A stretch of DNA of 64,000 bases from Balanoglossus misakiensis (taxonomy: Eukaryota > Animalia > Hemichordata): contig CM082583.2 in the NCBI GenBank assembly GCA_040954595.2, positions 11,880,636-11,944,635 of the forward strand, read 5' to 3'. Positions 3,201 to 34,188 of this stretch are shown here, one piece after another (the first letter of the stretch is position 1; each line of letters opens with the position of its first letter). Made by a program: the position numbers and the translations under genes. A model generated the notes under the pieces. It was not told the origin of the DNA and ran no database searches. It saw only the letters and a program-made list of their open reading frames with translations.

Positions 3201-3851
3201 GCCCATTGGCGGAATTTTACTTTCATTCGCTAGAGACAACGGCGGCAAGGAGTTCAGAACGTCAGATGCTGTGTGCAGCACATCGTTGCAAAGACTGATT
3301 CCTCCTGCCGGATTGGGGGAAATCCAGCTCTGTCTCAACAGTGAGAATAGCAAGCTCAGGCCAGTCCGCACCCCCATTTCAATCAATGCCTCTGTCCCCG
3401 AGCGAGACTTCAAAGAACTTGCTTTGTCATCGACCACACTGGAGAGACCTTCCTGGGCTTGCTGCTGTTGCCTCACTTTCTCCTTGTCGTGGAACTTGCT
3501 CGAAATGGCATAGAATATTCTCTGCAAAACCACAAGTCGTTTTCTGAGGGTTGAAGCAAACGGCGACTCAGAACAAACCGACCTGGCCAGCATCAACTGA
3601 CTGTTCAGCAAGGAATCCAAGTAATGCTCCTGCTCATCTTGAGACAAAGTCTCTCTCTCAAAATCCGGCAGCTGAGGTCCCTTCAGGTGGAGAGCTTGTC
3701 TGGGTAGAGCAACAACTTCTTTATTAGAAAGCAGTCTGTCATAGAGCCCAATGACTCCTTCACGACTGGCGATAATCTCAGCATCCTCGGATATCCAGGA
3801 AGCATTAAGATGCTCCAGCCACTTCAGCTTTACAGGAGGGTTGGCAGCCAT
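249..3851 (-). CDS. HERC1: HERC1 giant E3 ubiquitin ligase, N-terminus and first RCC1-like domain (continues beyond window start)
   Basis: N-terminus MAANPPVKLKWLEHLNASWISED...LKGPQLPDFERE resembles vertebrate HERC1; RCC1 repeats (VYVWGSNSSHQL, ACGKGSYGRLGLG, FSWGDGDYGKLGHG). Exons by GT/AG: 3851-2925, 1851-1756, 1592-1389, 1068-901, 744-507, 392-249. Probable non-coding first exon ending at a donor near 5611. Confidence 0.95.
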
Positions 3852-4657
3852 GATTCAGATGATTTTAAATGTACCTAGAAGATATAGTAATCAGTATTAT
3901 CAGCTGGTAAAATCATTGCAGTAGGATGTCTGAATCAATGCTATTTGACATCTGATGAACAACAATAACATACAATCAATAACATTCTGAGTCTCAGGTG
4001 CAGTCATGTACTTTTAAAAAAACATACTTTTATATTACATGTGCTTGATCCAGATAGATCCAGATAGAGAAACATAACACACGCAATTGGATCTACACTT
4101 GACTCATTGAGTGACAGCAGCTGTATCTTGACTGAGCATTGTCTGTTAAGATCAACATTCACTGTATGCACTTTGATATCAGATTCACCAAGGCCAGGTG
4201 AATGTCAAAAGGATACAATTACAGGTACATTAAAATAAAAACTTCATGTGTACATCTATGACACAATCGCACAGCTTTTGGGATTGTACCTTTTGGAGTG
4301 AACCCTTGTCTCATCAAAATCAGAGGGAAGAAACAGGATGAGAGAGGAAAATAAGGATTGGGAAAATCTAAAATCCACAATCATACCAGCAACATATGCT
4401 GACATTTATTTGTCCTTGACTTTCAAGGGAATACAAGGGTACAGAAGTAACTCAACAAAATTGTGGGTATGTACACATGAGTCATGAATTTTGAAAACAT
4501 TTAGGCCTTGACAATTGACTGCCAAAGGTCAGTTATAGACACTACTAATAACCTGTTAGATGGATGTACCGGTACAATTGCTGTAGTTAATACTTTATCA
4601 GTGATTTCTAAATATCCCCTGCCTGTATAGATAATAAAACATTGGCATGATTTGGAA

Positions 4658-4829
4658 TACTGTAAAACGGGTTATTTTTGCGAGCAATCAATTTCACGAA
4701 TAAACAAGAGCCAGAAAAATTTGAAAATAAAAAGTCACGTCATATGTTTTCGAAGATAATGATGTACTAAATGAAACTCTTTTGATATCGCGAAAATTTC
4801 CTGTCGCAAAAATAACCCGTTTTACAGTA
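4658..4829. mobile_element. MITE with 24-bp perfect terminal inverted repeats and TA target-site duplication (Tc1/mariner-like), in HERC1 intron 1
   Basis: ta-CTGTAAAACGGGTTATTTTTGCGA (4660-4683) ... TCGCAAAAATAACCCGTTTTACAG-ta (4804-4827). Related ends (ttttacagta) near 11866 and 63172. Confidence 0.85.
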
Positions 4830-5100
4830 TAATCAAAATGCCACCATTCTCTTGATTGTTTGGTCACATCTGTGTTTACTAAAAAAAATCCATGCATACA
4901 TGATGATGTTATTGTATGAACTCCATGTAAACTCAGGGTTTATAAGTTAATAATACAATTACAATGTAGTACGTTTTACCCCTTGTAGCATTGGAATAGT
5001 AGCAAATTTAGGGGCATTTAAATTTAAATTCCAAATCAAGATGAACAATTTCTATTTAATTATTTAGCCTGTAATTGTAATACAATGTAGTCAGCAGTAA

Positions 5101-5220
5101 AAGTTACTGAGGCTTTACTAATAAACCATTATCCAGAAATTAACAATCTGTGGGTTCGTCAAGTTACTGGGGCTTTACTAATAAACCATTATCCAGAAAT
5201 TAACAATCTGTGGGTTCGTC
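5101..5220. repeat. 60-bp tandem duplication (2 copies, 1 mismatch)
   Basis: aagttactg(a/g)ggctttactaataaaccattatccagaaattaacaatctgtgggttcgtc at 5101-5160 and 5161-5220. Confidence 0.95.
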
Positions 5221-5254
5221 AGTGGCGCATCAAATGGGCTAAAGAGGGCACACT
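5218..5254 (+). repeat. Short dispersed repeat; second copy inverted at ~12593-12628 in a MARCH intron
   Basis: gtcagtggcgcatcaaatgggctaaagagggcacact versus reverse complement of 12593-12628 gtcagtggtgcttcaaatgggcttagagggcacact. Confidence 0.7.
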
Positions 5255-5935
5255 TATGACCCCGTCGACGTAGAGGTCAACCTCTTGGCGAACGACTGAA
5301 AGACACCCAACCAGTCACTCCACACGATAAAAAGCTGCAGCATAGAACTGTTGCGTAAGAAATTTCATCATTTAGTTTTCTTGCATTAGTGATTTCAAAG
5401 ACGCGGCATTTTTCTAGCTACTACATCAATAATCAGTACTATGCGATCATTAGTAACCCGAGTACCATGTCTCGAGGAGCCGTGTCTGGCTGGTTGGTTG
5501 GCCGAACGTCGTCGGTTACGACCTCGACCAGCCAGTTCGTGTCCATGAAATCAGGTTTTCAAGTTACCACTGACTATCAAGATCCGTGTCTTTAATTGAC
5601 ATTGGCTTACCTATTTAAGATATTGCACTGGTGATGTAAGATCTTGGGAAAATTAGGTGACACGTAAAAATTCTAGCAATGGCATCAAAACAACAGAGTC
5701 ATATTCCTTGTCCGCCATTACTAATCCCACTAGGCTGCTCTAAATGTTCCTTCTCAACAAGGGAACGTTCATTACTTACTGTAGGCGTGGGCAATGGAAT
5801 TTTCTAGAAAGTCGCCTCATATTGGACGTTGAGATATATTACATTAGCATTTTTCAACTCTCCAGAGACATTCACTTCTAGAGTACAGTTATGGCCGTAT
5901 TCTTGTTAAAAGGAAGCCTGGAAAAAGTGAAAATC

Positions 5936-6025
5936 TGTCAGAAGGTTCGCACATATATACAAGTGACTCTTTAATATTTGTTATGGACATGTCAGAAGCT
6001 TCGCACATACAAGTGACTCTTTTAA
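5936..6025. repeat. Degenerate tandem duplication of a ~38-bp unit between the HERC1 and SUV39H promoters
   Basis: tgtcagaaggttcgcacatatatacaagtgactctttaa and tgtcagaagcttcgcacatacaagtgactcttttaa. Confidence 0.75.
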
Positions 6026-6399
6026 ACATTAATGAAAACCCAAAGTCTGCATGGGCGGGTGTTGTTTCGTGTTTAATTTTAGAAAAGAAGACTGCATGCA
6101 TTGTCTGAAAGGTATTGTGTAATTTATAATGATGTACATGTAATGAAATGTGACGACGAATCATTTCCCAGTCCAGCCAACACCCTGTTGGATATACATG
6201 GCATCTTCCTACTGATATTCGTAAAAGTTAAAATGGTATCGCCAAAACGTTAAAAGTAACAATTACCCCAATGGACTCGAAATTTATGATTTAAAAAAAT
6301 ATATATGCTTTTTATACTGCATAATACGAATTCATATGACAAAAAACCTACAGTCAGGCAAATCGTGTTTTATTTCAGCAGCTTGAGGAGTATGCCAGC

Positions 6400-6521
6400 T
6401 GATTGTTGACCCTCTGCCCCTGACGCGTTAACGCGCGCAATTCCCAATTATTGAAACTTCTCGTAATGCACGAGGCCCGGGGATCGTGGGACAACAGGAG
6501 ATAAATATAGTAAACTTAAAG
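6400..6521 (+). promoter_or_regulatory. CpG-rich promoter and non-coding first exon for SUV39H (and probably C5orf63-like); start approximate
   Basis: CpG cluster (gacgcgttaacgcgcgc, cccggggatcg) ending at donor AAAG|GTAAAT at 6521/6522; next acceptor ttttgccatag ends at 6931. Confidence 0.65.
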
Positions 6522-7017
6522 GTAAATATGATTCTTTGACCTAATACAGACCAGATTTGTCAGTCAGACAGCTCCAGCAAAGTAGCACAGCAGGGAAAAT
6601 GTAAATTTCAGGAATGCAATCAACAATGTACATTGCTTTTGAACCAAGTTTTAACGGAAATTAGTGTAGGCATGGATTGTGGTATGACAATCTTTTCAGT
6701 TTTGAAGAGTGGACCCACATTGAGAGTGAAAAGTCATGTATTATTGTATGCAGTAGAGACTGCACGCAGCATACTTTAGGGTTTATGAAACACATGAAAC
6801 ATACAACTGTTGTACAAAGATACAATGGGAAAGAAAATCATATGATCAAATTGATCATAAACATACATCTCTTTAAAATTATAGAGAAATTGCTCTTATT
6901 AATATGCATCATTCTATTTGTTTTGCCATAGCTTTGCAAGTCATGCAGTTTTGATCCCAGGGCAGCGTGGGTCCACTTTCAAAACTGAACTGAAGTGTCT
7001 ACCACTGAACCCTGGAA

Positions 7018-8574
7018 ATGGCTGAGACCAGAGTGAACAACATAGAAGATGATGCAACCCAGGTGACCATGGCAACCACTGGCAAGAAAAGAGGAGGGAT
7101 GGCAGACGACAAAGTTCATGGGGCAACTGTAGGCGAATATGAGGTGGAGAACATTTATGACTATTCCAAAGAAGAGGATGGGACAGAGTGGTACTTTGTG
7201 CAGTGGAAGGGATACACTTTCGAAGAATCCACTTGGGAACCGAAGTCTTATCTGAGAAAGTGCAAGTTGAAGCTTAAGAGATTTCACAGAGAACAGTATC
7301 TTGAGCACAAAAAGTTGAAGAAGTTGCAGAAAAAACAGAAAGTGAAAGACAGTGATGTGAAGGAAGCAAAAGAAAGTAAAAAGAAAAGCAGTGGTAATGA
7401 GTATGAAGTTGAATTCATTGTCGACTTTAAGAGAAATGAAAACGGAAAGAAACTCTATCTTGTCAAGTGGAAAGGCTTCTCTGAGGATGAGAATACGTGG
7501 GAACCGAAACGCAATCTGGCCAACTGCATTCCAAAGCTTGAGCAGTTCCACAAGAAGAGGACGAGAGACGAGTTGCTGAGAAAGAAACTAGAGAAGAAAA
7601 GGCAGGTGGAGGAGGCTAAAAGGAAGGTTGAGGAAGCTAAAATGAATGAGCAACTGCAGCTGGAGATCGAGAATGATAAAGTGGATTTTGGTGATCAGAG
7701 ACCAGAACTGATTAAACAGTTGAAAGCCTGGCGAGACGAGATCAATGCAAAGTCTACAGACCCTGCTCCTGTCAAAGTACAAAATACAGTGGATTCAGAA
7801 GGTCCACCGATGAATTTTACGTACATCAATGAGTGCATTGCCAGCGCTGGTATTACCATCCCCAACGATCCTCTGATTGGCTGTGAGTGTTCCGACTGCT
7901 TTGAGTGTTCAGATGCGTGCTGTTCCAGTCTGTCTGGTGCCAAGTTCGCCTACAACTTTCACAGGCGAGTCAGGGTCAAGCCAGGGATGCCCATCTACGA
8001 GTGCAACAAGCGGTGCAAGTGTGGACCGAAATGCAAGAACCGAGTTGTACAACACGGCAGGAGGTACAAAGTCAGCATATTCAGGACAGCGAACGGCTGT
8101 GGATGGGGCGTCAAAACCCTCGAGGACATACGGAAAAATTCGTTTGTGATGGAGTACGTGGGCGAGGTCATCAGCTACGAAGAGGCAGAGAAGAGAGGTC
8201 GCGAATACGACAGCAACGGCCGAACGTACCTCTTTGATTTGGATTACGACAGCAGTCAAGACTACACGTTGGTTGTGGACGCTGCGTTCCATGGTAATGT
8301 CTCACACTTCGTCAATCATTCCTGTGACCCCAACATGGTGGTCTACAGTGTTTGGGTCAACCAGGTGGACATCAGAATGCCACGTATCGCGTTGTTCGCG
8401 TGCTGCGACATCAAGGCCGGCGAGGAACTCACATTTGATTACCAGATGACAGGAGCTTCGTCTCGAGAAGATGCCGAAGCAACCAGCCAAGAAGCTGAGA
8501 ATGGAGACTTTGCGACTCCAAACACCATTCCTTGTCGATGCGGTGCAGAAATATGTCGAAAATTTCTCTTTTAA
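7018..8574 (+). CDS. SUV39H: SUV39H/Su(var)3-9 family H3K9 methyltransferase, 518 aa, single coding exon, two chromodomains
   Basis: Chromo 1 YEVENIYDY...[17 protein letters not shown]; chromo 2 YEVEFIVDF...[17 protein letters not shown]; Cys-rich pre-SET; SET (GWGV, EYVGEVI, YLFDLD, NHSCDPN, ELTFDY); post-[22 protein letters not shown] at 9035 and 9310. Confidence 0.95.
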
Positions 8575-9534
8575 GATTGTTACCCCAGTGTGATCCATAT
8601 TCCTGTCACACTGTAAATGGATCTCTTGTCGGTTGCATGTAGCATGCAGCCTCATGGCTTGCGTTATATGAACGCAGGTTGGAGTTCTTGCACAGAACAG
8701 AACTATCATTTGGGCTGCATCTGTCTGTATGTCCAGACGTCTGTCCACTGGGCAAGAGGTTTAATATTTTGCTGCAGGAATACACTCTCATTTGCACTTG
8801 CTTTCTCTTCAATTGACTTCAGTGAAGTTATTAAAGCAATGCTACGGGAATGCCGAAACTAATTTCAGCAGTTGACACAAACATTCAGTGACTGCTTGAT
8901 TTTATTATGCGTCTTGTTCAATGTTGCATTCAAAAATAATTCTGAGACGATAAACTCACAGTTTAGACATCCAACCAAATCAAAATATTAATTGGAAAAA
9001 AATATTGTAGAACTTAAGGTTACCTTCATACTCCAATAAAAATTTTCAGGGATTTTTAGCATTTGTGTAACTGTAATGTATATTAACAGAAAATGTATAG
9101 CAACTATTTTTTAGAATGCTATTGACAATTTGAATTTTAATGACATCAGAAGCTGATATTTAGTGTGTTGTTTTTGATGTATTTTGCGTTTAGAGGAAGA
9201 AAAGTCCCTCTTTGACATTTGAAATTTTTTTATTTGCATATCTGCTCACTAAACTACTCACTATTCATTAGCAGAAGTTGTGTTTGTATTATGTTGCTTG
9301 TATTTAGCCAATAAAGTTGTTCAACCATTTGAATATATAAAATTCTTGTGCATGGACTTATTATTTGATGTTAGAGGGAACTTGGCTGGAGAGTGGATAA
9401 GCCCGTCTGCAAAATACTCGGTCATATTATTGGTCATGTTGTCATTTCTTTGAGAAACTTAAGCTTGTTTGAGGGCAGGTACAATGTTGACACGTTCCTT
9501 TGTCAACAGGTGATCAAGGAGGACGATCTGGAAG

Positions 9535-10123
9535 ATGTTTTGGAGAAATCCACTTGGACGATTCCCAACAGTTGTTAGGCTGTACCAGTTTTACTCCACT
9601 GGATCGACAAAAACTCTGCCTGTCTTAACTTTGTATACAAAAGTGAGTAATACATTTGGACTGATAAAGAACTGAATTCTTGTACAATGTAATGACCATC
9701 CTTTAAATACTGGCAGTATAAACTCGACACCTTTCAGTATTCCTTTTTCAGTATTTTCTTTAATTAATTGTTAGAAATATATCGCTTTTTATGTTGTTCC
9801 AGGAAGTCTGTCCACTGTGTGATGATGCAAAAGAGGTCTTAAAGAAATTCCCAGGCAGGGTAAGAAATATCCAAATGTGTGTCATAATTAACGTCGTTGA
9901 ATATAATGCCAACTGTAAGAATTGAGTTATCTTCATGTTCACACTTCTCTTTTCACCGCAGTTCACATTAGAGGAGGTTGATATCACAAAGAAAGAAAAC
10001 AAGGACTGGTTCAAGCGCTACAGATACGACATTCCTGTGTTTCACTTCAAGGGGGAATTTCTCATGAAACATCGAGTCGATGAAACACTTCTCGAAAAAG
10101 TATTAAATGAACATGAGAAGTGA
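9535..10123 (+). CDS. C5orf63: Glutaredoxin-like protein, C5orf63/YDR286C family, 108 aa
   Basis: Exons 9535-9642, 9803-9859, 9962-10123 splice in frame: MFWRNPLGRF...LPVLTLYTK|EVCPLCDDAKEVLKKFPGR|FTLEEVDIT...WFKRYRYDIPVFHFKGEFLMKHRVD; CPLC motif. First coding exon is preceded by acceptor ttcctttgtcaacag (ends 9509). Confidence 0.9.
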
Positions 10124-11938
10124 ATGTGATTAAGCCCTTTTATCAAGACCAATTGTTTGGTTTTATATGTTGCTTTAGTTCCTGCTGCTATAAAAGTTGG
10201 ACAGTTCTCCAAATGCTGATGTTCACAGATATTTCTGACTTTATCATGTATAATAGTTTCTGTAGATGAATAAACAACTAGAAGCTTCCAGAACTGAGTG
10301 TTTGCATTTTTTCTTGTGGAATTCAGTTGGATAATTTCTAACAACTATAGCTTTCTATCCACAAACAATTTTATCATGATTACCCTGAGCGAAGTGCGAT
10401 GAGATTGAAACAAACAACATGCACCTAAGCAATGTTTTTCCTGGCAAAAATTATCCAAAGGGAAGGGGAATTATATTTTATACTGAGATAGTAAAACTAT
10501 TCCTTGAAATTGCAAGTTGCGCACCGACATATTCATGTTTATAGTGACAAGCGAGTGCGTTTATGTGTACAAAGTACAAGGCATTGATTTACGCGACCCC
10601 ATGTCAGTATCGAACACGTGCAATTTCCGCGCGAGGTGAAGTTTTGAGACAGTGTTACATTCTGATTGGTCGAGTGTCAGACGGGGTCGGAACGACGTAA
10701 CATGATTGGGTAATCGTGTTGCTGAATTCTTCCACGTGCGGTTGTGCGCGTTTCACAGTATTTCAATCGGTTAACGGTCAAGATGTGGCGTATCATGTGA
10801 GCGAAGAGATGATCAGCCTTTTTGTCGTCAATTGACCATATTTACGCAGGTATGTTGTCTATGTAACGATGTCATTTCTCCCGGTGTCCTCGTTTGTTTA
10901 TGTCTGAGACCCCAGCCAGCCGTCTGCACTTTTTATGGCGCAAAGTATATGTGCCAGACACATCAAGACCTCCAACATGCATATATTTTCTGTCAGATTC
11001 GAAATTGCACAAATGAGGCGGATAATACCAAAGATCATGGACCGATGCGGTTTACGTTAGTCGAGATACACAGCCTCCAGTCAAAGCTGTAATCGATTGA
11101 GCTTTCCGTACGTGTCCTTGGACGTCTGCGATTGCCAGTCATCTTTGTGCTTAAAACGTGCGGTATACAGACATTTGACAAAGACTTCCCCTGAGTGTTA
11201 CGTCATAAAGCATTTTCCCCTTTCGTTGCCACACTCAAATACCGGCCTTAAATTTCACGAGTTCGACAAACATATCGTGATAATAACTACATATCATCAA
11301 GTAGTCAATACACATTGGCATTTCAAAAACAAAACAAAAACCGATGACTGAAAGTGTTGCCAACTTCGACCTTGTGCATGCTATCACTATCAGACAGTCA
11401 ACAAACGTCTGTCAGTAGTAGAATAACAGAACATTGTAATCGTCCTTGAGCCATTTGGTTTGAATTGTGTAGTGAAGCTACAGTGGTAGTCAGAAGAAAA
11501 TGAATATAGAAGTACTTTCTCGTCATGAAGAGTCGCGATCACGTTCACATTTGATTTCATGCGATTTGATTTCTATTAATTTTAAAAATTCACATAGCCA
11601 ATAATATTCGAATTGTATAAAAGAGTTGCTCAGAATATGATACCACCATGTACCTGTAATATGTCATATGTGAGTTGATAATTTTGGATTAAGGAAAATT
11701 TCTTGGGCGTTCCCAATATTAAGAAATGTCATTTCATATATGTGATTATATAATTTGTGTGTGTGTGTTTGTTTGTTTTGCTTGTTTGTTTGTTTATGTG
11801 TTTGCTTGATGGTTTGCGAAGTTTGCGAAAAATTTATCGTTCGTGAAAATTTCCAGTTTTACAGTATGTCCTTTGGAATAACTTAATTCCTTTTTTCTTT
11901 GGAAACTAGCTGGTCTACTCTGAAATATTCCTGTGAAG

Positions 11939-13386
11939 ATGGAGACGACATCATCTTCCATCGCGGTGTCAACAGAGACATCATCCAGCAGTACAGCTGT
12001 GATTCCCGTTGTGACCTTCTCCTCATCAGGAGTTGTAACGACGTGTACAGAACAGCCAGCATCACTGGGTCACCATGGATGTCTCAGTATTACCAGGTGA
12101 AATTGAGTACTTAAGAAAACTTCCAAATTTAGTCCCCTGATTAAAACCAGTATTGTAAGTTGCAGAATAAAATGTCCATCAATCATTAGTGTTTCAGTGT
12201 AAATTTAGCTGTCTGTATGAGACCAAAATAACTTGTCTTAAGGATGTTATCAAAATAATGTCTTCATTACATGCCAGTAGGTCTTCTGAGCTGTTTTGAT
12301 ATATTTTAAATTCTAAAACTGTCTGTCTGTTGTTTTTTCCCCCAGTTTTAGTACCGTCCTCAGTGATGGCCCAATGTGCCGCATTTGTCATGAGGGAGAA
12401 AAGTGTGGAGAAGAGTTGATATCGCCGTGCCGCTGCACCGGAACCCTGAGCTATCTGCATCGCGGATGTATTGAACAGTGGCTGGCTACTGCCAACTCTA
12501 CGCAATGTGAGCTGTGCAATTTTGAATTTAGAACGAAGAGACGACCAAGGTCGATTGGACAGGTCAGTGATGCTTAGGACAGATCATTGGTCAGTGTGCC
12601 CTCTAAGCCCATTTGAAGCACCACTGACTCAACAAACTCACTGGTTCTAAAGAACAGATGGTGGCGCTCTTTTTTTCGCGAGTGCCACCCACTGTTTTGT
12701 GAGCATCCAGTTCAAGCCAATTCTAATGTGGTACCAGAATTGTTCACATTTGCTATGATCATCATTGTCGCTTTGTTTATTCATTGCTTCATATTCTCTC
12801 TTTTTATGGCAGTGGTTCCAACAATCAAGTCAGAACAATGATAGGAGGAATTTGATAGGCGATGTCATCTGTTTCTTCATCCTGACGCCATTGGTCAGCG
12901 CAAGTGCCTGGCTGTGTCTGAATGGGGCACAACATTATCTCCACCATAAAGGACATACCTGGGAAGCAGCTGGCCTCGTGGGTCTCACAGTTATATTGAT
13001 CATGATTTACACTGTTTGGGCTGCGGTAGGTTTTACATTCCATGATATTAGGCTGATGCACACGAGAGAAGTTTGAATGAGCAATGACAATGCATCTATG
13101 TTCATGATTAGTGATTTTGTTTACAGGGGATTGTGGTGTTGTTACAGTTCAAATCCCCACGAATTTAACTTTGATATTCATGTACCAACACATACAGTCA
13201 CTCATTATATTCGTCTTCTCAATTTAGCTTTCATGTAGATACCACATCTATGTATGGCAGGCATGGCGAAGAGACAATCAGATTGTACATCTAGTTGTCA
13301 GGGAAACGCCAAGCAACGAAACGGAAGAAAACCAGAGCCGAGACACAGCGACAGAAGTGATCAGCTCCTGGGAGACACAAGTATAG
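11939..13386 (+). CDS. MARCHF3: MARCH2/3-type RING-CH membrane E3 ligase
   Basis: Exons 11939-12096, 12346-12562, 12813-13025, 13228-13386; RING-CH CRICHEG...SPCRCTGTLSYLHRGCIEQWL...CELC; two TM helices; C-terminal PDZ-binding-type ETQV*. Non-coding first exon ends at a donor near 10849; AATAAA at 14501. Likely co-ortholog of MARCHF2/3. Confidence 0.92.
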
Positions 13387-16371
13387 CCAGCCGTTGATGA
13401 GACCAATGGGTGTGTCCATGCACAAGTGCCATAGATTGATGAGATCTTTGACTCAATCATATCATATTTTGCATCCACACTGTGTGCCAGTCATTCAGTT
13501 GTATTTTTTACCAAAGAACTTGTATTTTTTCCCTTCAGTATTGTGGGAAGCGAGTATGTGTGCGAAAGCTCTTCCTGTATTTACAAAAAGCCGCTAGACA
13601 ATTGTACAGCATGGGTGATTTTTACTGAAATTTTATCTTTTGTTAAACGTATTGTGGCGCTCCCTGTTTGTGACATTTGTTTCATAAACAGTGTACGTTG
13701 CATTTTTACTTTAAACACTTTTCTTTCATGGCTGTATCCCATAACAATGTGTCTGGTATATTACCTGGTGTAGGACAGTTATTGTCTGTTGCAAGACTTC
13801 TGTTCTAGTGAAGTGTAAATTGCGCTGGTTGGAATAGAAAAGAATTCTGAGTTCATGAGTATTGTTTCATTGCTGAGTTGTGAAATATCCATAGAAAGAC
13901 GCAGTGGCCAGTTTCGGTTCCATATTTATTGACGTGCCAACCATACTAATCTAACAAAAACAATGCAGGTGTTTATGTCAGTGATTTATGTTATTTTATG
14001 TGATTCGGTCATTTTTTTTCCAACAGAGTACAATGGAAATCTAATTTCCAAACAAATCAAGCAATTTTTTCGGGTAACAAAATCCATGTATATATATTAC
14101 GTGTTTGTATATGTTATGTTTGTATTCATTCGAGGAAACAATCAAACAGTGGCCATTTGAACATGTTATTAATTAACTTTACAGAAAATGTACATTTAAG
14201 TGTGTGAGTACTAACGTTTTGAAAAATTCAGATTTTAGAAATTCTTTACAACTTGTCCTTTTCCTTAAAAGCAGTTCTGTCATTTGTTCACTATCCCAAA
14301 GCCAGATTTCTGAATGTCGGTCTGATAGCTGTAAAGTAACCTGGACTAATTTAAGTCAGTTTAAAATAATAACCAAAGAATACAGAGTACAGTACATCAT
14401 TAAAACATAACCTTTTCTTGCAAGTTTTAAGTGTTTCCTTCTGACATATCTGTTCAGCAGGTGTAATTAATTAAACAGTATCAACCAGATTTTACCTTGT
14501 AATAAAGTAAATTTATTGTTAAATGAGTGGTTTGTGTATTTTTGTGTGTGCAGGAATCATGGATGCAACTCATAACACAGAGATACAAGTCAACCATGAC
14601 ACAGAATAATATTGATTAAAAAGGTTTTTTTTAATTGTATTTGGCAAGTGTGTCAGTTAACATTAGGAGTTAAAGTAAAACAATAAGAACTGAAAGCGAT
14701 GATGCAATACTAGTTTATGTTCTCCCCTTCAACATTAATATGAGGGGTGAAAAAAGACTAGAGGTTCTGGTTAAAATAAATGTCTTGTGGATAATATACT
14801 GGATATAAAATATAGGTAATATCAGTAAGTATCAAATGCTTGGAACTAAAAAAAAAGACTACCTGTATTGTTAGCAACTATCCTGCAAGCCATTACTTCA
14901 AATAAATACACACTTCTGGGAATTTTAAAACATGATAATGGCAATGGGTTAATGGATGAAAATGGCCCATTAAAAAGCATACAATATTTCAGTAGACAGT
15001 ACAAAAATAGCGCCAAAGGCACTGTGCTCCCATGTCCATGTTGGGGAAGATGTCAGTGTAGATTGGTAGACTGGTAGTGTGTATAGTGATTGAGAGTGAT
15101 GGGGGGTGGAGGGAGTTATGCAATGGCTTTCCAACTCCCCAGAAGGAGGGAGGGGGAGGGTTTCAGTCTCTGGCCCATGGACTAATAACGTCCTGTAACA
15201 GTGGCTGTACAACAAAAAGTTGCTACTGTACCCAATCCCGCACCCCGTCAGAAATCAATTGCTTCACCCCTTACATATCGCATGGGAGCATAAAAAACAC
15301 CGCCATCAAGCATATGTTTCTTCTTTTGTTGCCATAAAATTAAAGCATCAAACAAATGAATATTCCAGTAACAGTAAAGTAATAAGCTAGACCATGATAT
15401 GTGCAAGACAATCATGAAAAGAGAGAACTGTTTGTTATGTCGAGATAAGAAAGCTAAGCTGGTCCATCATTAAGCATGTTTAGTTTTGACTAACTCTCAG
15501 TGGGTGGGATATAAAGATGGGAACATGTTTTTTTTATTTTCTTATCTGTCATCAGTACTTCTTTCACACTTTAACAATAATGAACACATTATGAACAGTT
15601 GAATCAGAACATGAAGCACCATGTAGACCAATTAAACAAACATTTCTAAGCCTATATCTAATATCTAAATTGCACCCTTTTAATTTGCATTCAACACATG
15701 AATAACGTGAATGAACCACAGAAAAATCAAGCGGAGGGTCATTTTCACTAGACTACTCACTAGCTCTGAACACTAAATTCCTGTCTAGATTGTCATGATT
15801 CATGAAAATTATCCAACAAATATGGCCGCAAAAAAGTCTGCAAAAATTGAAATACTCAAAATTATTTTTTTTTAGTTAAAAACCAACCAACCAACCAACA
15901 GGATAGGTTGTGTCATTTTTGTATCAACGCGTAAAACTGCTTCAACAACTGACAAGCTAGCTTATTTAACGGTAAAGGCATAGTTTCAAAAAGAATAAGG
16001 GAGGTTTGTGTGTTGTGTTACAAATATACTCCCTACAAATATACTCCTTACTTCCTTCTTGATTCCTTGTATTCCTTCACAAAACTGACACTACTGAAGT
16101 CTGCACTGTCATGGATCAACAAGAGCTACTAATTGTAAAGAGAAAGTTTTAAAGCAAGTGGACAAGTGGTTTGGGAGAAAATCAATGGTACATATATATA
16201 CCAAATGGAGCCTAAAACTTGACAAATTTCTAACAAAATCTTTTGCTTAAACATTCTGACCCTAATGATATCTGCATCTTTCTCAATACCTCTACAAAGT
16301 ACAATTATATAATTTTTTTTAAAAACTTCCCTTAAAGTGTTCTCCTAAAAAGGCAACATTCACAGTGGAGT

Positions 16372-19300
16372 TTACATGACAACACATCTGTCTCCCTTTT
16401 GGCCGGACTCACGCTGTTGGGAAAAAAAAAGAAATCATAAAATAGGTTAATTGTTTTGCGGTTCGAAAAAAGGGATGAAAGTCACCATACTTGTGGGTGG
16501 TAAGATCAAAGCGTGACCTTTCACCTTTGTTACAGATGAGGCTTCACCTAAGCCATGCGACACAACAACCATGCATAACACTGACAAGCTGAGATAGACA
16601 AGGCTTCTGTGACATCAGAACAGGCCCGGAAGAGCAAAATAAATTGGTTAGTCTTTGTCATCCTGGAGTCTCTGTGCCTAATTAGCTTGTTAAAAGAAGT
16701 AAGCTAACTGCTTTCAACAGTAATGTCTTCATATCTGATGACAAATGAGTTGAATCTTGTCCATAGAGACATTACTGCTGTATTGTCTTTGGCCAATACA
16801 TATAAGCATTCAAAAAGCATACACAGTTAAATTACTGATGCCGCCACATTCAAGTAAAGGCATAAACACTGATATTAAAGAAAATAAATCTCCAGCCTCC
16901 AGCAAGTGCACAAAACTTGACAGCATTACACCACGAACATTTTAAAATCAATGTTCAATCGAAATGTGTGGGATGGGGTCTCCTGAAGCTCACAATTTGA
17001 CAATTCAGTCAAAAAATAGCAACAATCTTGGCATTTTAGCCAGTGAATGTGTTTGCCTGTTATCTCAAGCAACAGAATTGATCTCAAGCAGACAAGGGCT
17101 ACAATGAAATGGAACACACACCATTGGTTTACTCACTATCCCGCTGACCGGAAGAACCAGAGTCAGACTGTACACAGGAGATACAAGAAACTTATTTCAG
17201 TCATCTCCGAAAGGGGTTGTCCCTTTTACATCATTTCTCAACTCATAAGCTTAAAGAAGCGCCTGCATACAGCATGCTTACATGATGTTGGGGGGGGGGG
17301 GGGATTTTGTAGTGATTTTTTATGAAACTTGGAAGCACACAAGTTGGCTGCCATATTGGAAACACATGTTTGTGTCAGTAAAGACAGCACATGGCTGTTA
17401 CAGGGGCTGCTGTCACAGATACTGATCAGACCATGTTACATGCATTTCCTGAAATCTGCCTGTTGTTTTCTGTGAGGTACATGTAGATCATGGATATGTA
17501 CGGTAGTACATATATGCCCATGGTCAAGTCTGATCAATAACCCAACAATTCCAATATCTCCAGCTGTAACTTGGGGAGTTCTCAAAGTCATTGTGCCCTC
17601 ACTGCATTGGGTTCGGCCAACAATCATCTGCATAAACTGTCATTATACTAAAAGAACATAATAAGATCCAGAAACTAAACGCAGATGATTTTGAAAGTTG
17701 TGTTGTGCAAATGCATAATAGAATGAAGCAGGCGAATTAATCAAACCATAACAGAAATTTCAAGCTGGCTAAATATAACAACCTGTTGGTGAACATAATT
17801 TGTGTTGGCCTTACCAGACTTAATCTGCCACCTGAAGTCTCAGTGTATTCTTCATAGGAACACTCTCGACTCATTGTACGTGATGCCATCGCCTGCAAAG
17901 AACACATCAGTTATAACACACATACATTGTAAATCAATCAAAACGGTACCAGTAGTCTTCAAATGATAATAACTAGTGAGTCAGTTGATATATTGTAGAG
18001 AAGTCATGTAATTCTTTCATCCAATCTCACCTCCCCATTGTTATCCACTAAGACAGTCTTGACTGTGTCGCCCATGCCAAATGACTTGACCTTCCAGACC
18101 AGATCTGTGGGTGGATTGTGCGACTTGCCAGCATCTTGTGCCCACACTGTTACATTGGCATTGGCTTTCAGAACATAACGACTGGCGAATTTGTAAGTGA
18201 TCTCATCGGCTTCATCGACTTGGCGTTTCAGCTGCCAACCTCCCAAAGCTTGGTCCTGCAAAAGGACGACCAAATAAGAACAATTTCCAGTCAGAAAGTT
18301 GATAACAATATTCGTCAACCGGTACCCAGTATCAGGGAAAACCTGCATAGTGTGAATTGACACAAAAATCCATCTCACCTTATCAGAGGTATTTTGGAGT
18401 TTGATAAATAAGCCGTCGACATCTGTTTCAAAGATTGATACACAACCAGAGGCAGTAGCTGTTTGTGATAGACTGGAAGTTTCATCAATGCGTCGACGTT
18501 TCTGACCTCTGATCTGTCTCATTGGTGTGCTTCTCTGCTGTGATGCGCCTTTCTTCTGTTTTTGACTTTTTGGTGATGGGCTGATGTTCAGTCTGTAACA
18601 AAATCATAGTAGGAGACGGGCGGAGTTCATGACTGCATACAATAATTATATTTATAAGTAAAAAGTGTTCATATTTGACACAAGTGCTGGTTGCACAAAA
18701 GTCTCCACAAAATCACAGCGTACCTGCTTTCCTCCCCTTCAAGTAACTTCCTGTAGGCAGCAATCTCCATGTCCAATGCAATTTTGATTCCCATCAGTTC
18801 TTCATACTCTTTGAGTTGTTCAGCCATGGAGTTCCTCAGAGCATCCAAGTCTAGGTCTCTTTCCCGTAGGGCAAGAGCAGAAGCTGTCTGTTCGTCCGAT
18901 AACTGTTTCTCCAGATCCGATATACGGGAACTAAAGGCTGCCACCTAATGTAGCACAAAGTACATATTTCTTCAATTAATCTCACAATAGAGATTCAATA
19001 AAAGTTTTGTGTCTTTCACCAGGCAAAGAAAATCTAAGATGCTCTTCACCACTCAGAAATGGATGAGAGTTGACGCAGGAATCTACATGGCTATTAACCT
19101 GTTTTTTTTTGGGTGCATTGAAATTGCCTTCTTACCTGTGCTTTGAGTGAATTGACCTGTGATGTCAGGCCGTCGACCTTGGTGCGGTTCCCTCGCAATT
19201 CATCTTTAGCCACCATTGCATCATGGCTGTATTTCTCTGCCATTAACTTCATTTCAGACAGCTGTGAATGCAACACAAACCAACACGTGTGAGGCAAGAT

Positions 19301-22120
19301 CTCTACATGGTGAGGCGAACACAAGGGATCTTTGCTGGGTGAAAATGAGCTGAATTAATGTTGAACCACTTATGCATACATCCACTGATACCTATGTCTA
19401 AACCAAACCTGTTCTAACTGAAACCTGGCAATGACATATACATTTGAACAACCTCTGATTGTACACTCTCAGACACAGACAAGGCACTGTACCTTTGAAT
19501 GGAAAAGAGATTCTGTTTCCTGTTTGAGGAGAGTGGCCTGTTCCTCATACTCCTCCCGGAGTTCTTGCAGACTTTCCTGCATTCTGCTGGCGTATTCTTC
19601 CCTGGCCCGGGAATCCACTTCCGTGATGATCTCTTCCTTCTGCCTCCTCGTCTCAACCATTTCCTGAAAGAGGAAGCATTTGTCAGAAATATCTGCCAGG
19701 ACACTGAATTACCTGATACAACACTGAACAGTCTCAAAATGGATGCACCACAGAAGTGATGACGATAACCTTCACAAGCAACCAAAAAATGATTTTTCCT
19801 GTTGTTTACTCGGGTAATCTTTATTTGCTATTTTCAAACAAAACCCAAAACCCTACCCCTTTATGGAGTTCCTCCTTGAATGCCAACTCTTCCCTCAAAC
19901 TCGTCACTGTGTTCTCGACTTCCACACGGAGAATAGTCTCCTCTTCCAGCTGCTTGCGGGCATGCTCAATGGCCTTCTCCTTGTTGCTATGCTCCCTCTT
20001 GAGACGATTGAACTCATCCTCAAAGTGCTGTCTCTCGTTGAGGGCGGTCTTCAGTTTAGCCTCTCTGTCGGACAATGTGGATTCCAGTGCCAGGATTTTC
20101 TTTTCAGCCTGTGCAAGGTCCTTTTCAGCTTTCAGTGACCTGTTCAAAAATAAATTTAATACAACAGAATTCTTTTAACTACATTTCATATTTATAAATA
20201 TGCATGTGGTATGCATATGACCCTCAACCCAACCCGTAGTACACCATACCACATATGGCATCATGAATTGACAAACAGGAACCCAGCTGCGAGGCACAAC
20301 CAAGCTGACCTCTACAAGCCTAGGGTCAATAACATCATCAATGGCAACCACAAACAACGAGAGTGACTGTGACCCAGTTATTCTGGGGGTGTTTCCATAC
20401 TGTGACTATCGTTCCTCCATCATGGCAGGATCATAGTTTGAGGTTGTAGATTGCTTATCAGTATCGCAGTAACAGTAGCTAATAATTATGTAACATCTCT
20501 GGTTAAATTAATTAAAGCACATCCTGACCATGAATGAGAAGGGCAAACACAACCTCAGATTATACAGCAAACACTGTTATTGGTGGCCAAGGTACCAGCT
20601 GCACTTTTTAGCACTGACCTTTGTAGGAAGCCATTGACATATGGTTTCTGCTTGCAAAGAGGTGTGTCACATTTCCTATGAAGCGCTCACTCAGTGACAC
20701 TGCCAAACAATGCAGCACCACCCTTGGCTGTTCAAGATTCACCACCGAGACGTAAAAACAGTCTATTCATATGCACAAATTGATGAGCACCATCATTCAG
20801 TCAACTTGAGAATTAACAATGGCAGGCACAAAACAAACCATTTACCCTTGGGTTAAAATGTACATGTTGTTTGGAACAACTCCAAAACCCCTCACAATAA
20901 CCTGAACTGCAGAAACCCTGAGGGATGAGGGTGTTCTGAATAAAAACAATAGGTGGGTTCATTGTGTCCATTCAGAACCATAATACTCACAAACACATTT
21001 CAACAAAAACTGTTCAGTTTTACAGGGAACTCAATTTTTGCATAGGTCAATAAATTTGCCATATCTTTATGAATTATGTAATAACATTGATACAATGTAC
21101 CACTTATTAGCCTATTGATAGTAGTAATGCTCAATCTAATCACCAGAAGCAGGTCACTTAAGATTTATTTTTCTGCTTCATCTTGTATAATTGCATTATT
21201 ATCTAAGGTTTGGTAGAATAAAATTGTCGTTTTTCACGCTTATGTACACCCCCCCCCCCAAACTGGCTCCCTCCTCCAAGTTATCTATTAATTTAAAGGT
21301 CTGCAATATACAAGAGTTAATGAGATGCGTGACATGCATTCCACTCTCACTTTGGCATCAACCATTTCAGAAATATGGGTAATGTACAGCACTTCCAAAG
21401 AAAGGGACAAGATCAAGGACACTGGGAAATGTCCTAATGCGACTTATTCTAACTTAAATATTTGTTTTTCTTTGATTTTGTCTGACGACGTAATAAAATA
21501 TTTAAACTGGACAAAGTTTCCTCTCCAACATCACCAGACTTGCTACCCACCCCTCATAAGTTCAAAAGCCCAACATGGCGACTAACAGCATAATGCATAA
21601 TGTGGCGTGGGTTTATCGCGTCGGCTTAGCCCAGAATGTACCACAAGGTTATAATCAATCGGAGATCAACAAATACTCAACGTCAACACGATAAAAACAA
21701 GTTATCATAACAAAGAGGTATCAGTGGGTAAATAATGGTATAAAAACAGAGTTAATATCACCGTTACCTCGCCCCGGAGTCTTCAGCACGCGTTTTCCAT
21801 TTGCTATGCTCGACCTCCATCCGTGCCTTCTCTTTGGAAGTACTATCCAACAGCTTTCGTACATCCGCCAATTCAGTTTCGTACATCGATCTCAGGTTCC
21901 TCACCTCGCTCGTCTGGGTCTCTTCGACCCGCGAAATTTGCACATGAAGACGAGAGTTCTCATGTTCCAGGTATTTGACTTTCTCGATGTAGTTGGCAAG
22001 CCTGTCATTGAGGTCCTGCAGATCATTCTTCTCCTGGATTCGGCTCCTTCTTGAAGGACTCAGCGGAGATGCCGGTGTTCTCGAGCTGCTTGTCGTCTGC
22101 TTGCGTGTCTGCGTTGCCAT
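16372..22120 (-). CDS. LMN: Nuclear lamin (B-type, CaaX)
   Basis: Exons 22120-21768, 20139-19857, 19663-19493, 19261-19136, 18944-18724, 18592-18379, 18255-18031, 17892-17815, 16413-16372, frame-consistent. Head CDK site [18 protein letters not shown], rod end [26 protein letters not shown], Ig-fold tail, C-terminus CVVM*. Confidence 0.95.
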
Positions 22121-22299: not shown

Positions 22300-25200
22300 G
22301 GTGCAGATGAGGGCTGAATCATCATGATCATAAGCGTTTTCCTGTTCTCAAATGCGTCGTTGCAGTTCGCCACGCCGCTTTCTCTTAGTACCCATTTGTG
22401 AATGAAGCCAGTTTACAATGTAATTAGTTTATTTAGAACACAACGTGGTATTAAAAAGTCAGACATTCGCAACTGTTCTAGCTCCGAACGCGGGCGAAAT
22501 ATTACATCACGACCTTTCTGATTATGTTGATCACAACATCATAAATTAAAGTCTGAACGGTTCCAGTTATGAAAAATACATAACGTTCGACTGATAGTAA
22601 ACCAATTTCCCCCCGAAAACGATTAAATTAAGTCTGTTCCTGGCAATCCATGTCAAAGCAATAAGTAAGCCAGCTCATGTATTGAGCGCCCTCTATAGTT
22701 GTCTCAAACAAATGCTGGATCACACAAGTCTCCTCATAAATTTTGGGAAACAATTGCCTGGCGCTGGGGGCGTACCGTATGAGTATAAATGCTCCGCCAT
22801 TTTTTCATCTCTAACTGCAAATAATTGAACTGAAAATTATTTCTATTACATATGATTGATCAAATTTGACATGCCCGTCGGTTCCATGGCCAATATTTAA
22901 AGTCAGTACCTACCATCAACGCAAGGCTTGGACAAATTGTTTTAGGCCACCACAAGTGTCCGCGATTAAAACGATAAAGTTTGTGATATCGGTTTTCAAA
23001 GAAAGTGTGAGTTCAATTAGTAAGTAAATGAATAAAAGAAAACACCATTGGGTTATAGGAGGGTGTTCTACTGGATATGCTAAAGGTACAACTGCCCAAA
23101 CTTTGCAACCAAAATAGACCCACTTGCAGGTATGCATATATGAAAAGGGGGCCAATGTCGGTTAAATGTCACTGAAGGTAACCTCTTATCGGCCACCTTG
23201 ATGTAACGATAGGGGGTAACGACCGCTCGTTGTGTTGTATCTCTATCGAAGCCTGCTATCACTATGATATGATCTGGGTGCCTGATCTGAAGTCGCACGT
23301 GTGTGATGACGAAAGTTCAGCCATGTTAGGGTACTTCGATACAGATTGGAGCGTCGAGCTGATACAGCCAACGCGTGACCTAACACCTAGTGAGCGATAC
23401 CAATTTGAAACGAAAACGTCCGGAATTTACGATAAAAAAATAAGCGGCACCAAGGAATTCTAAAAATAATTGCTCACAGTAAACGGCCTCACCTGGACAC
23501 AGAGAAAGCTGGGGTTAAAGGTTATCAGAACTTGTAGAATGTTTAGCGTGCAAAATTGCCACCAGAGACAAATTGTACCCGCATGAGTTTACAGGCATGA
23601 TTTTTGTATTACTTCAAAGTTAATACGACAGTCAAAGCATCATTGAATACTTTGTGGTACCATAAAATACATGCGATAATACACCCGACCCTAAAGATTG
23701 CCTCGGTAACAAATCATACTTTTACAAGGTTAAAGGCCGAGATTCAACAGCAGATCTACGTATACGTATGTATGTATTCCTATGCATGTATGTATGTAAG
23801 TTTTGTGCCATTAAAGTAGGCCACAGAGTTCGTAGTACTCGACGTGGGTGGATGCATAAATGACAGCTTATAACCCTGTGTCGAGTGTCTGTGAACTCTG
23901 ACTATAGGCGTTCACATGGGCAATTCATACCTTGATCAGAATAGAAGCATCTAAAGCAAGGTCTGATTTGCATGAAAAGGCTTGCAGATAAAGCAGTGCT
24001 ACTCTGTCACGCCAGGGGAGGCCATGTTACAAAGAGTAAAAAACAGCCAATTGAAGTTTTCCACCAATCCGGGATCACTGCCAGCGTTGGGATACTATTG
24101 GACCGTCGTGACCGCGGGTATGGCTCAAATTAAGTTTGGTATAATAGGACAGTGTCCAGTCTGTGGTGGTCAGTCCTACCACTGCGGAAAACGGGCGAGT
24201 CATTGGTCAACGACGGCCAAAAGTAGTTTTATGTCCGCTGCGCACATTCCTGAACAGGGCAAGTCGGAATGACCCATGCATACAGTACAAGTGCCACTGC
24301 GGAAAAAAAAAGTTGCTGCGAAGTTACTGCAAGATTGAGGTAACACCAGACGCTGACTTGACAAGGCACTGCAGTTAGGGTACCTCTGTCGTTATCACTT
24401 TTTATCTTCAGTCATACTTTGTGTGATAACAGAATTCAACGAGATGTTCATGAACACTCGAGAACCACCACTAGTCAGACGAGGTGCGTTGCTCCTTTAA
24501 AGAAGGGATTCCAGAAAAGAAGGTATTTATGGACGGCAAAGAAAAGCGCAACAACGATTCCGCCAGTGAGCACTGCACCATTCTACAAGTGGCAAGATAA
24601 CCGCACCTGGAGTGAGGGACACTCCCATGCTGAAAAAGCAGAGGAACTCGACGCCCAGTTTAACTTTTGTAAGTACGTGTTTAATTTGTATCCCTCCTCT
24701 GTTTATGACAAAAGTTGAAAGTTATTTCAATATTTCAATCGTGAAAGAACCCTGAGAGACCACCGCTTTTGTAGGACGATCCGCAATTATACCGAAGACG
24801 GATCTCCAAGGTCACGGCCCTTTGTCATTAAGATAGGACGTTCCTTGTCACAAGAACAGGTATACAGAAGGTTGTGAATAACGATTGCTTAAAGTATTAA
24901 CTTTCCCATGGTGTGGGCGACAGCAAGAACAGACGCGTGTGGGGGACTTCAAGGACGCGGGGTATGTATAGAATTTGTCAGAGTGGGGTCGGACCAGTGG
25001 TCATTTTTGTACTTCGCGCCCGGTTTCCCAAATCCAGATCTAGTTGCGACGGCACGCAAAGTAAAGTGTACCTTGCCACAGCAGGGCTCTGTATTATCAA
25101 GAATGTCACTGGAGCCCTCCGACAAAGCAAACAGAGAATTAGATGAAAGCGGACGTACCAGGAGACATTTCTTCTCAGAGCTGGCCAGACTCTCTCTCTT

Positions 25201-28200: not shown

Positions 28201-29705
28201 TTGAAGTTTCCATGCTCACCGCGCCACAGACGAATCTAAAACAGTAGCCACAAAGGTGCCATTGAGCGAAAGGTGAAGCACGCTTCTAAAGGAATGCATA
28301 AATTTATGCAGGCGTCTGAGGCCTAAGGCCATTCCCATACATTACGGAGTGTTGTCGCATATCCAATTAGTCCACCTCTACTGGAACTAATAGGTTCGAT
28401 GAATAGCGCGTAACCTGGCCAGCCTTTCAACTTATTACACAGGGGGTCACAAACGAGTACTCTAGCCGCTTAGTTAAGACGTATACATTTCTTTTGACTG
28501 TTGTAGAACCCCACTTGTTGGTGGTGAGTGAAGAACAAGGGAGAAGACAAAAACTAACATCAGGGATACTTTGAATCTCAAACACAGACTGTTTAGTCCT
28601 CCAATCTTCGCCACATCACGGCTTAAAATCTCCACCCAACAATTTAGAAGCCGTGTCTAAAACTACACGAGGAATTCTCCTGGCGAGACCGAGAGGTGAG
28701 ACATTTCTCAAACTTCGCCATCTTAAGTATATCACCTTGAAAACCGCTGATGCATGGACATTTTCTGATTAGTCTTTTTAAAGCACCGGTAGTCGTTTTT
28801 TTCTTGGTGCAAAATCGTCTAGTACCCTCAGAGACCTGGCAAGACATCGGTATGACATGTAATCACCACTGACAGTGATGATTACGTCAAATGTTTGTGA
28901 GATTCTTCTCCTATTGGCCGAAACTGCCGGGCCGAGATGACACCAAATTCGCTTGACTTCATTATGATTCTGTCACCGAGGCTCTCCACCCAACCTCGTG
29001 TTCCAATCAACATGATCAACTTCACCATCGGGGGTTATTGATCCCGTGGAAACCGAATACCTCATAATGCAATGTAAAATTACCACCAGACAAACAGTAT
29101 AGTCTGCTAACTTGGAGTTTGTTGAAGGAAAGTCTGGCTTCGCGGTTCAGGCTGAAAGGGGCTGGCTATCGACCGGAACACCTCTGGGTTTCATTCATCC
29201 ACTTTGTACTTCTGGTTATCACCCTCCCTGAGAAACCCCTTCTTTGTTGAAAGAATTACTAGTCACCGAAAAAAACGCCCATCACGAATGGTGATAATTT
29301 TACTTTTGCAATCTGGCATCATTGGTTAGAAATGTATCCTCAGTTGGCTGAACAAGTCGTGGATCAAAATTGAAGATGGCGAATAACGTGCACTGGGCAA
29401 AGCGTTTTAGAGAACTTAGAACTGTATTATCTGGATAATTGTAATCCGTGCACGTATGTGGTAGACCATAAAACCACTTGAGAAACCACCCATGGCATTC
29501 CAACAGCAAACACTCCACAGAGTTGTGTGGTCCCCCCCCCCATTCTGGCCGCTACTCTACCCGACACTTGTATGTATATGTATGCCCTGTGCTCACTCAA
29601 CTGTTCGAGGAAATAAAAAAGGAGCAAACACTTCACCGCGGGGAGTTCACACTCTTGTCGTTGTCGTCCGATGCATTATAGCCGCTCCTTACAAAAAACC
29701 GCGCG

Positions 29706-29713
29706 TATATAAA
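29706..29713 (+). promoter_or_regulatory. TATA box, candidate pri-miR-9 promoter
   Basis: TATATAAA in CpG-rich context ~370 bp upstream of the miR-9 hairpin, followed by a plausible donor (ACG|GTGAGC, 29831) and acceptor (gtttctcag, 29949). Confidence 0.45.
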
Positions 29714-30071
29714 GTGGTCTCTCTTTCATCCAATTGCTGGGTCTAAGGTTAACGGGGTCAGTATTTACATAATAACATCTTTTGATGAGTCAGTGGGCAG
29801 ACGGCTGGACCCGGCGTTCCCTCGCATCACGGTGAGCTCTGCTACTAATTGCCTGGCAAGAAGTCCCGTATGCTTGGGACGTTTTATGGCGATGTGACTG
29901 TGAGTATCAAAGCGGATAATTAAATATGTTTCATTTTTGTGTTTCTCAGGTAACAAAACAGCGATTTGATTCGTGGCTTTATCTGAATTTTCATCTGATA
30001 ATGGATGGACTCATCATCACAGACTGTTACTGCACAACGTCACACCAAATTTTCTATGCTCAATCTGGCGC

Positions 30072-30145
30072 TCGTTTTCTCTTTGGTTATCTAGCTGTAT
30101 GAGTGTTTTATACATTATAAAGCTAGGTTACCAAAGACAAAAACA
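30072..30145 (+). ncRNA. mir-9: microRNA miR-9 precursor (5p miR-9; 3p miR-9*/miR-79 type)
   Basis: TCTTTGGTTATCTAGCTGTATGA at 30080-30102 is the canonical miR-9-5p sequence; 3' arm ATAAAGCTAGGTTACCAAAGAC (30117-30138) pairs with it across a 14-nt loop. Confidence 0.97.
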
Positions 30146-34111: not shown

Positions 34112-34188
34112 CTTAGGGACTGTTCAGAATTTACTTCCAGGGGGCGGAGGATCTTCAGGGGAGTCCACCCATTTTCTCCAAGAAAATA
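34112..34188 (+). repeat. Dispersed repeat, probable MITE end; second copy at ~51968-52047
   Basis: cttagggactgttcagaatttacttccaggggg...ggat.ttcaggg...ccacccattttctc.aagaaaat at both positions. Confidence 0.8.

Follow-up and report, generated by a model that had tools for sequence, protein, structure and literature searches.

An intron-free, two-chromodomain SUV39H gene relocated to the C5orf63 locus of an acorn worm and predicted to share the first exon of its host

The closest described system to the locus reported here is the insect Su(var)3-9/eIF2gamma gene. In the available text of Krauss et al. (PMC1435931), a single large exon encodes the insect enzyme within an intron of an unrelated host, free paralogues were not found, retroposition was proposed, and a weak Su(var)3-9 acceptor was considered a precondition for such a capture. 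The same enzyme, SUV39H, is encoded in a 64,000-nucleotide stretch of DNA from the acorn worm Balanoglossus misakiensis (GenBank assembly GCA_040954595.2, contig CM082583.2, positions 11,880,636 to 11,944,635; hereafter the window), which, on the reading proposed here, would resemble the insect case in each of these respects. Its intronless SUV39H open reading frame (ORF) lies upstream of the coding exons of a C5orf63 gene and is likely nested in the 5' untranslated region (UTR) intron of that host. In insects, 79-84 coding residues are common to the enzyme and eIF2gamma, and cDNA demonstrated the splicing (PMC1435931, as far as the available text extends), whereas the SUV39H of the window shares none with C5orf63 and its splicing is predicted from sequence only. 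The window also differs in the host (C5orf63), in the phylum and in the possession of two chromodomains. The locus is read as an analogue, and not a member, of the Su(var)3-9/eIF2gamma fusion. The parallel had been drawn in a preliminary description of the window, and it is in print (PMC1435931, in the part available).

Related arrangements are known from retrogenes. Mouse Taf9 is a retrocopy in an intron of Ak6 that is expressed via upstream host exons, giving two unrelated proteins, and the use of a host 5' UTR by a retrocopy is the "hitchhike" scenario of reviews (PMC4772013, PMC5408686, PMC7749173; available text). Taf9/Ak6 differs from the window in being mammalian, with two host exons, several start sites and documented transcripts. 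Rodent Utp14b is an intact retrogene in intron 1 of the unrelated Acsl3 (PMC5750009, available text), a position like that predicted in the window. In orphan retrogenes, such as RNF113, the retrocopy replaces the parent and usually has a CpG-island promoter (PMC4772013, available text); for the gene of the window, the loss of the parent is presumed, and the sign of it in P. flava is indirect. The predicted architecture allies the locus with Taf9/Ak6, Utp14b/Acsl3 and the orphan retrogenes. The parent of Utp14b is said to persist, and the retrogene reportedly shares the non-coding exons of Acsl3. The use of host 5' exons only by a retrogene is thus the known part of the present case, and the novelty would be that a host gene has captured SUV39H for a second time, independently of the insect event. 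No paper on a hemichordate SUV39H capture was found in a searched literature short of most subscription journals.

The features of the locus are as follows:

6200..6521, + strand, putative promoter and non-coding exon 1, CpG-rich (CpG observed/expected ratio, o/e, of 1.25 in 6200-6499; donor of 6.5 bits; exon status predicted)
6522..6931, + strand, predicted intron of the SUV39H isoform, 410 nt, with 13 ATGs and a weak acceptor
7018..8574, + strand, SUV39H ORF, intronless, 518 amino acids
7138..7290, + strand, SUV39H chromodomain 1, the extra copy, common to Ptychodera flava (Pfam PF00385, E 9.4e-13)
7402..7557, + strand, SUV39H chromodomain 2 (Pfam PF00385, E 2.2e-19)
7756..8556, + strand, SUV39H pre-SET, SET and post-SET regions
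9035..9040, + strand, putative SUV39H poly(A) signal 1, AATAAA (motif)
9310..9315, + strand, putative SUV39H poly(A) signal 2, AATAAA, 194 nt 5' of acceptor 9509 (motif)
9510..9642, + strand, C5orf63-like coding exon 1 (ATG at 9535, coding part 9535-9642; canonical splice sites)
9803..9859, + strand, C5orf63-like coding exon 2, with the CxxC motif
9962..10123, + strand, C5orf63-like coding exon 3, up to the stop codon (Pfam PF05768, E 1.6e-9)
10269..10274, + strand, C5orf63 poly(A) signal (AATAAA)

On re-checking, the donor site following position 6521, the acceptor sites that end at 6931 and 9509, the uninterrupted 518-codon ORF (7018-8574) and the AATAAA motifs at 9035 and 9310 were all where the preliminary description had placed them.

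The ORF at 7018-8574 reads as a SUV39H orthologue and a predicted H3K9 methyltransferase. The domain order is Chromo (twice), pre-SET and SET, as returned by Pfam, and then post-SET, with its cysteines at residues 506-513. The SET motifs were intact, and the FVNHSC motif with the preceding histidine that Krauss et al. describe was present at 430. The closest of the best 120 of 1433 matches was the P. flava SUV39H2-like protein XP_070543557 (67% identity, 98% cover), followed by proteins of Glandiceps, echinoderms and Saccoglossus. In a tree of the pre-SET/SET region, which held no non-SUV39H outgroup, the window and P. flava sequences grouped with support of 100/99 within a clade of four hemichordates (100/100). 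The SUV39H identity given earlier was thus borne out, but the second chromodomain had been overlooked; two were found with PF00385.

Two chromodomains were present in two of the 274 SUV39H homologues, namely P. flava and one unnamed protein. XP_070543557 resembles the window gene in its two chromodomains and in lying on the C5orf63 chromosome. The unnamed SUV39H-like protein, of 833 amino acids, probably acquired its two copies through an independent duplication. The first chromodomain of the window clustered with its P. flava counterpart (100/99), and the copies in the window agree at 109 of 184 aligned bases; the duplication is therefore old and shared. As both copies are without the intron that splits the domain elsewhere, the duplication likely followed the loss of introns and preceded the divergence from P. 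flava. The ambulacrarian SUV39H proteins examined are short at the N-terminus and do not carry the Cys motif present there in amphioxus, vertebrates, Lingula and molluscs; the pattern used for this motif misses many vertebrate variants, and no count was drawn from it. A metagenome scan kept 80 of 105 loci, nearly all of them chromodomain-only, and none was used.

The host is read as a member of the C5orf63/YDR286C glutaredoxin-like family. Its three exons encode 108 residues with a PF05768 match and a CxxC motif, and its best matches are named C5orf63. The N-terminus is basic, and its first 25 amino acids contain no acidic residue. The acceptor lies 25 nt 5' of the ATG at 9535, and an in-frame stop follows it immediately. 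In Saccoglossus, the C5orf63 isoforms have a junction two codons 5' of the short-form methionine. The longer isoforms known from Asterias, Acanthaster and two amphioxus records differ solely upstream of this methionine; among these cases, only Saccoglossus displays a junction directly. The Saccoglossus junction fits an ancestral intron in the 5' UTR of C5orf63, the one predicted to house SUV39H. Two further neighbours serve as synteny markers:

12346..12562, + strand, RINGv exon of the MARCH-like neighbour (Pfam PF12906, E 7.8e-16)
18004..22120, - strand, lamin gene, convergent with MARCH (Pfam Filament and LTD)

Human LMNB1, MARCH3 and C5orf63 lie next to one another (PMC6597974, available text). 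The C5orf63-MARCH-lamin order of the window (9510-22120) is that of human 5q23, a very old microsynteny, and because the cluster is also found in human, C5orf63 is considered ancestral at the locus. We take the relative orientation of the three genes to be the same in human as in the window. No paper on lamin-MARCH synteny was found.

The chromosomal evidence indicates that the gene that moved was SUV39H, not C5orf63, and that it did so on the branch shared by P. flava and B. misakiensis. In the available part of Lin et al. 2024 (PMC11175523), the C5orf63 orthologues are on Bf02, Sp13, Po08, Pf21 and Sc10, in ancestral linkage group C1; the table row was located by protein-to-transcript accession offsets and confirmed, as the amphioxus protein predicted from it was C5orf63. 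By accession offset in that table, amphioxus SUV39H falls in a Bf05 block (group E), and its Schizocardium partner has an identifier in the Sc03 range. SUV39H of S. purpuratus and L. variegatus is on the Hox chromosomes, which hold group E. In P. flava, SUV39H is on Scaffold_21 (37,263,076 bp), which is equated with PFL21, the C5orf63 chromosome, because the Hox scaffold bears the same number as the Hox chromosome. Only seven orthologue pairs link SCA3 with PFL21, compared with 717 linking SCA3 with PFL6 (available part of the source). Amphioxus, two sea urchins and Schizocardium have SUV39H in group E, but P. flava has it on the C5orf63 chromosome; this contrast is the ground for assigning the move to SUV39H. 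The move came later than the split from Schizocardium and Glandiceps. The two genes are also on different sequences in Glandiceps, Saccoglossus, Asterias, Acanthaster and Branchiostoma lanceolatum.

Two observations weigh against this account. Both genes of Amphiura are on one 71-Mb chromosome, 300 accession numbers apart. The P. flava C5orf63 protein was absent from the best 120 of 655 matches, so that the link in P. flava is at the level of the chromosome and not of adjacency. The view of SUV39H as the newcomer nevertheless held, with SUV39H in group E in the outgroups and C5orf63 in its ancestral C5orf63-MARCH-lamin setting, and the relocation of an intron-free SUV39H to the C5orf63 locus is well supported by these comparisons as a real event.

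The ORF has also lost ancestral introns. Six of 274 SUV39H-like protein records stop or become non-homologous exactly after the YVGE motif, where a gene caller would be expected to read into an intron; of the ten rows returned by the filter, four were full-length proteins that matched the motif by chance and were left out. The six include fragments clustering with Amphiura (brittle-star-like) and with Lytechinus (sea-urchin-like), a Priapulus model and a bird fragment. The Asterias isoforms differ by a six-residue insertion inside the chromodomain, at the start point of the bird fragment. The window ORF is continuous at YVGE, where a phase-0 ancestral intron (at ~8166) is absent, and across both chromodomains. 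We presume that the YVGE and chromodomain introns match those of human SUV39H1. Indirectly, this indicates that at least two ancestral coding introns were lost from the window gene, both positions being kept in echinoderm and other homologues, and the earlier claim of an ORF stripped of its introns agrees with two positions that are continuous here and split in relatives. Retroposition in the ancestor of all ambulacrarians, hinted at by their short N-terminus, was ruled out, since echinoderm records retain coding introns. Two points limit this reading: the ancestral positions were deduced from protein fragments and isoforms and not from DNA, and the introns may already have been gone before the move.

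The loss of ancestral introns together with a new position fits retroposition, and SUV39H is likely an old retrocopy, moved, as we infer, through RNA. Against this, no poly(A) tract was found at the insert, and no pair resembling a target-site duplication flanked it (6300-9700; the 20 largest of 27 direct repeat families). The retrogene is graded as likely only, for want of these marks, although they are expected to be lost in old copies, and with chromodomain copies alike at just 109 of 184 nt they would not be expected to survive. A young insertion was ruled out by the chromodomain duplication shared with P. flava and by the divergence of its copies. The proposal of a SUV39H retrocopy in the host 5' UTR intron thus stands as to a newcomer that lost its introns in a manner that fits retroposition, but the event is old and common to P. 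flava. One P. flava SUV39H, and no intron-containing parent, was found among the best 120 of 1433 matches, an indication, short of proof, that P. flava has lost the parent. The combination of intron loss, change of chromosome and missing parent is the usual signature of a retrogene (PMC4772013, available text). SUV39H is probably an orphan retrogene that replaced its parent.

Splice sites were scored with matrices built from 27 donors and 32 acceptors, hand-annotated in the window after being proposed with seed frequencies, which biases them towards the consensus. Donor 6521 scored 6.5 bits, in the top 0.36% of 7849 GT sites, and no other plus-strand donor in 5900-9470 exceeded 2.6. Acceptor 9509 scored 5.1 bits (top 1.4% of 7306 AG sites), near the median of the held-out true sites (15 of 32 equal or lower), and acceptor 6931 was weak, at 2.0 bits (7 of 32 equal or lower). 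In 8575-9460, the best of 55 GT sites scored -0.8, where the held-out true donors (n = 27) span -1.3 to 9.1; past the last SUV39H poly(A) signal, in 9311-9460, the best of ten scored -2.0, below the range of true donors.

CpG o/e in 500-base bins was 1.05 at 6001-6500 and 0.33-0.48 across the bins of 9001-10500. Gene bodies were CpG-poor, and bins with o/e of at least 0.8 were found at the 5' ends of the lamin, MARCH, metaxin/ADP-glucokinase and VPS45 genes and at 4500-6500. The claim that no CpG-rich promoter lies between the two genes was upheld downstream of the SUV39H ORF, where 9001-10500 is poor, and failed within the ORF, as CpG density over the 500-base bins of the window peaks at 8001-8500, in the SET coding region. 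Because an unspliced leader of SUV39H would have 13 ATGs and 6600-7100 is CpG-poor, SUV39H would require donor 6521. A nested SUV39H with a first exon shared with C5orf63 is judged to be quite likely.

Under this arrangement, a single transcript would begin near 6400, at the C5orf63 host promoter, with non-coding exon 1. Joining of donor 6521 to the weak acceptor 6931, with cleavage at 9035 or 9310, would yield the mRNA of the SUV39H methyltransferase. When the polymerase passes 9035 and 9310, donor 6521 would be joined to the stronger acceptor 9509 and the SUV39H exon removed as intron, and the resulting mRNA would encode the small glutaredoxin-like C5orf63 protein. The choice between the isoforms would lie in splicing and polyadenylation, and they would have no coding sequence in common. 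Exon 1 carries a 12-codon upstream ORF (ATG 6466) that terminates within the exon, and no fusion protein arises from the upstream ATGs at 6392 and 6466, which open only 5 and 12 codons; the earlier statement of a different host without shared coding sequence was correct on both counts, the host being C5orf63. As a whole, a two-chromodomain intronless SUV39H, likely a retrocopy in the 5' UTR intron of C5orf63 that likely replaced its parent, driven by the host promoter and used as an alternative last exon, is the reading we consider reasonably probable.

Since the SET coding region is itself CpG-rich, an internal promoter there remains the main rival. The two genes would then be in tandem and not nested, SUV39H having taken the promoter at 6400 and C5orf63 having its own start, either CpG-poor in the 3' end of SUV39H with an unspliced leader or at a CpG island in the SET region with a weak donor. 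Several findings favour such a start or weigh against a shared exon. The SET region has 37 CpG where codon use predicts 27.9 (z 2.2), the first 250 SUV39H codons having a z of -3.5; candidate donors, although weak, occur there at 8063 (1.3), 8070 (2.1) and the GC site 8419 (4.1); 7 of the 27 true donors score below 2.0; the nested arrangement must pass two canonical poly(A) signals; and CpG richness does not mark promoters specifically, being found also in the 22.5-34.5 kb intergenic block and in two RasGRF bins. However, an internal RasGRF exon has a comparable CpG excess (z 2.7), no credible donor lies past 8575, the 20 ATGs in 8575-9509 oppose a long unspliced leader, and an acceptor of median strength has been retained 25 nt 5' of the C5orf63 ATG. 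We consider the tandem arrangement unlikely on these grounds.

Nesting could also have arisen without retroposition at this site, if the coding introns were lost earlier in hemichordates at the old site and the gene, together with an acceptor belonging to it, was relocated afterwards as DNA. The lack of a poly(A) tract or target-site duplication would suit this history, as would the N-termini of the ambulacrarian proteins examined, all already short and without the chordate/mollusc Cys motif. However, insertion marks are unlikely to have survived over the divergence of the chromodomain copies, and the loss of at least two introns, the change of chromosome and the apparent absence of a parent form the usual retrogene signature (PMC4772013, available text), which leaves a move as DNA decidedly unlikely. 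Operon-like processing, with cleavage of read-through RNA at the poly(A) site of SUV39H and the addition of a trans-spliced leader to C5orf63 at acceptor 9509, appears very improbable. The spacing of about 190 nt from a poly(A) signal to an acceptor is reminiscent of nematode and tunicate operons, but a cis donor is present at 6521, separate CpG-rich regions accompany the other 5' ends of the window, and no report of trans-splicing in hemichordates was found in the available parts of the literature consulted.

The other genes of the window, named partly from sequence similarity, are taken to be HERC1-like, MARCH, lamin, MCEE-like, metaxin, ADP-glucokinase, VPS45/Sec1 and RasGRF-like. The HERC1-like gene (3874-6500, minus strand) is head-to-head with the SUV39H/C5orf63 unit, and minus-strand sites (acceptor 5917, donors 5780 and 5611) suggest non-coding exons; the CpG-rich 4500-6500 may act as a bidirectional promoter for three proteins. 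A head-to-tail duplication of ~60 nt at 5100-5225 was spotted by eye, with a shorter near-duplicate at ~5938-6025. An Rfam scan of 3800-12000 gave no matches at E 0.5. The ~12 kb at 22500-34500 held no recognisable host gene, its CpG was undepleted, and it contained fragments resembling decayed transposon frames. At 39859-40422 (plus strand) lies a gene with a single coding exon, an acceptor immediately 5' of its ATG and a donor near 39585, and the claim that all the other protein genes of the window have coding introns is probably wrong in this instance. Its 187-residue product is CBM96/DNRLRE-like, had no Pfam match at 1e-3, and had an Atlas feature score of 0.97 to clusters that are mostly bacterial; horizontal acquisition is possible, but the Atlas taxa do not establish it.

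If the shared exon is true, the locus would be an independent repeat, in a deuterostome, of the insect Su(var)3-9 story. The ideas of Krauss et al., that a dosage-sensitive, weakly expressed methyltransferase lives off a host promoter via a weak acceptor and that nesting keeps SUV39H intron-free, would then be testable beyond insects. We hold a wider proposal to be rather doubtful, namely that the only SUV39H of these acorn worms is a two-chromodomain orphan retrogene, the second single-exon SUV39H passenger in animals, whose dose is set by a regulated choice of last exon, so that the capacity for heterochromatin and the output of the mitochondrial-type redox protein C5orf63 would be traded off at a single promoter, possibly with feedback through H3K9 methylation of the SUV39H exon. 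The two-chromodomain SUV39H allows asking whether a second reader domain offsets low expression, and the relocation of SUV39H is a rare genomic change that marks the lineage of P. flava.

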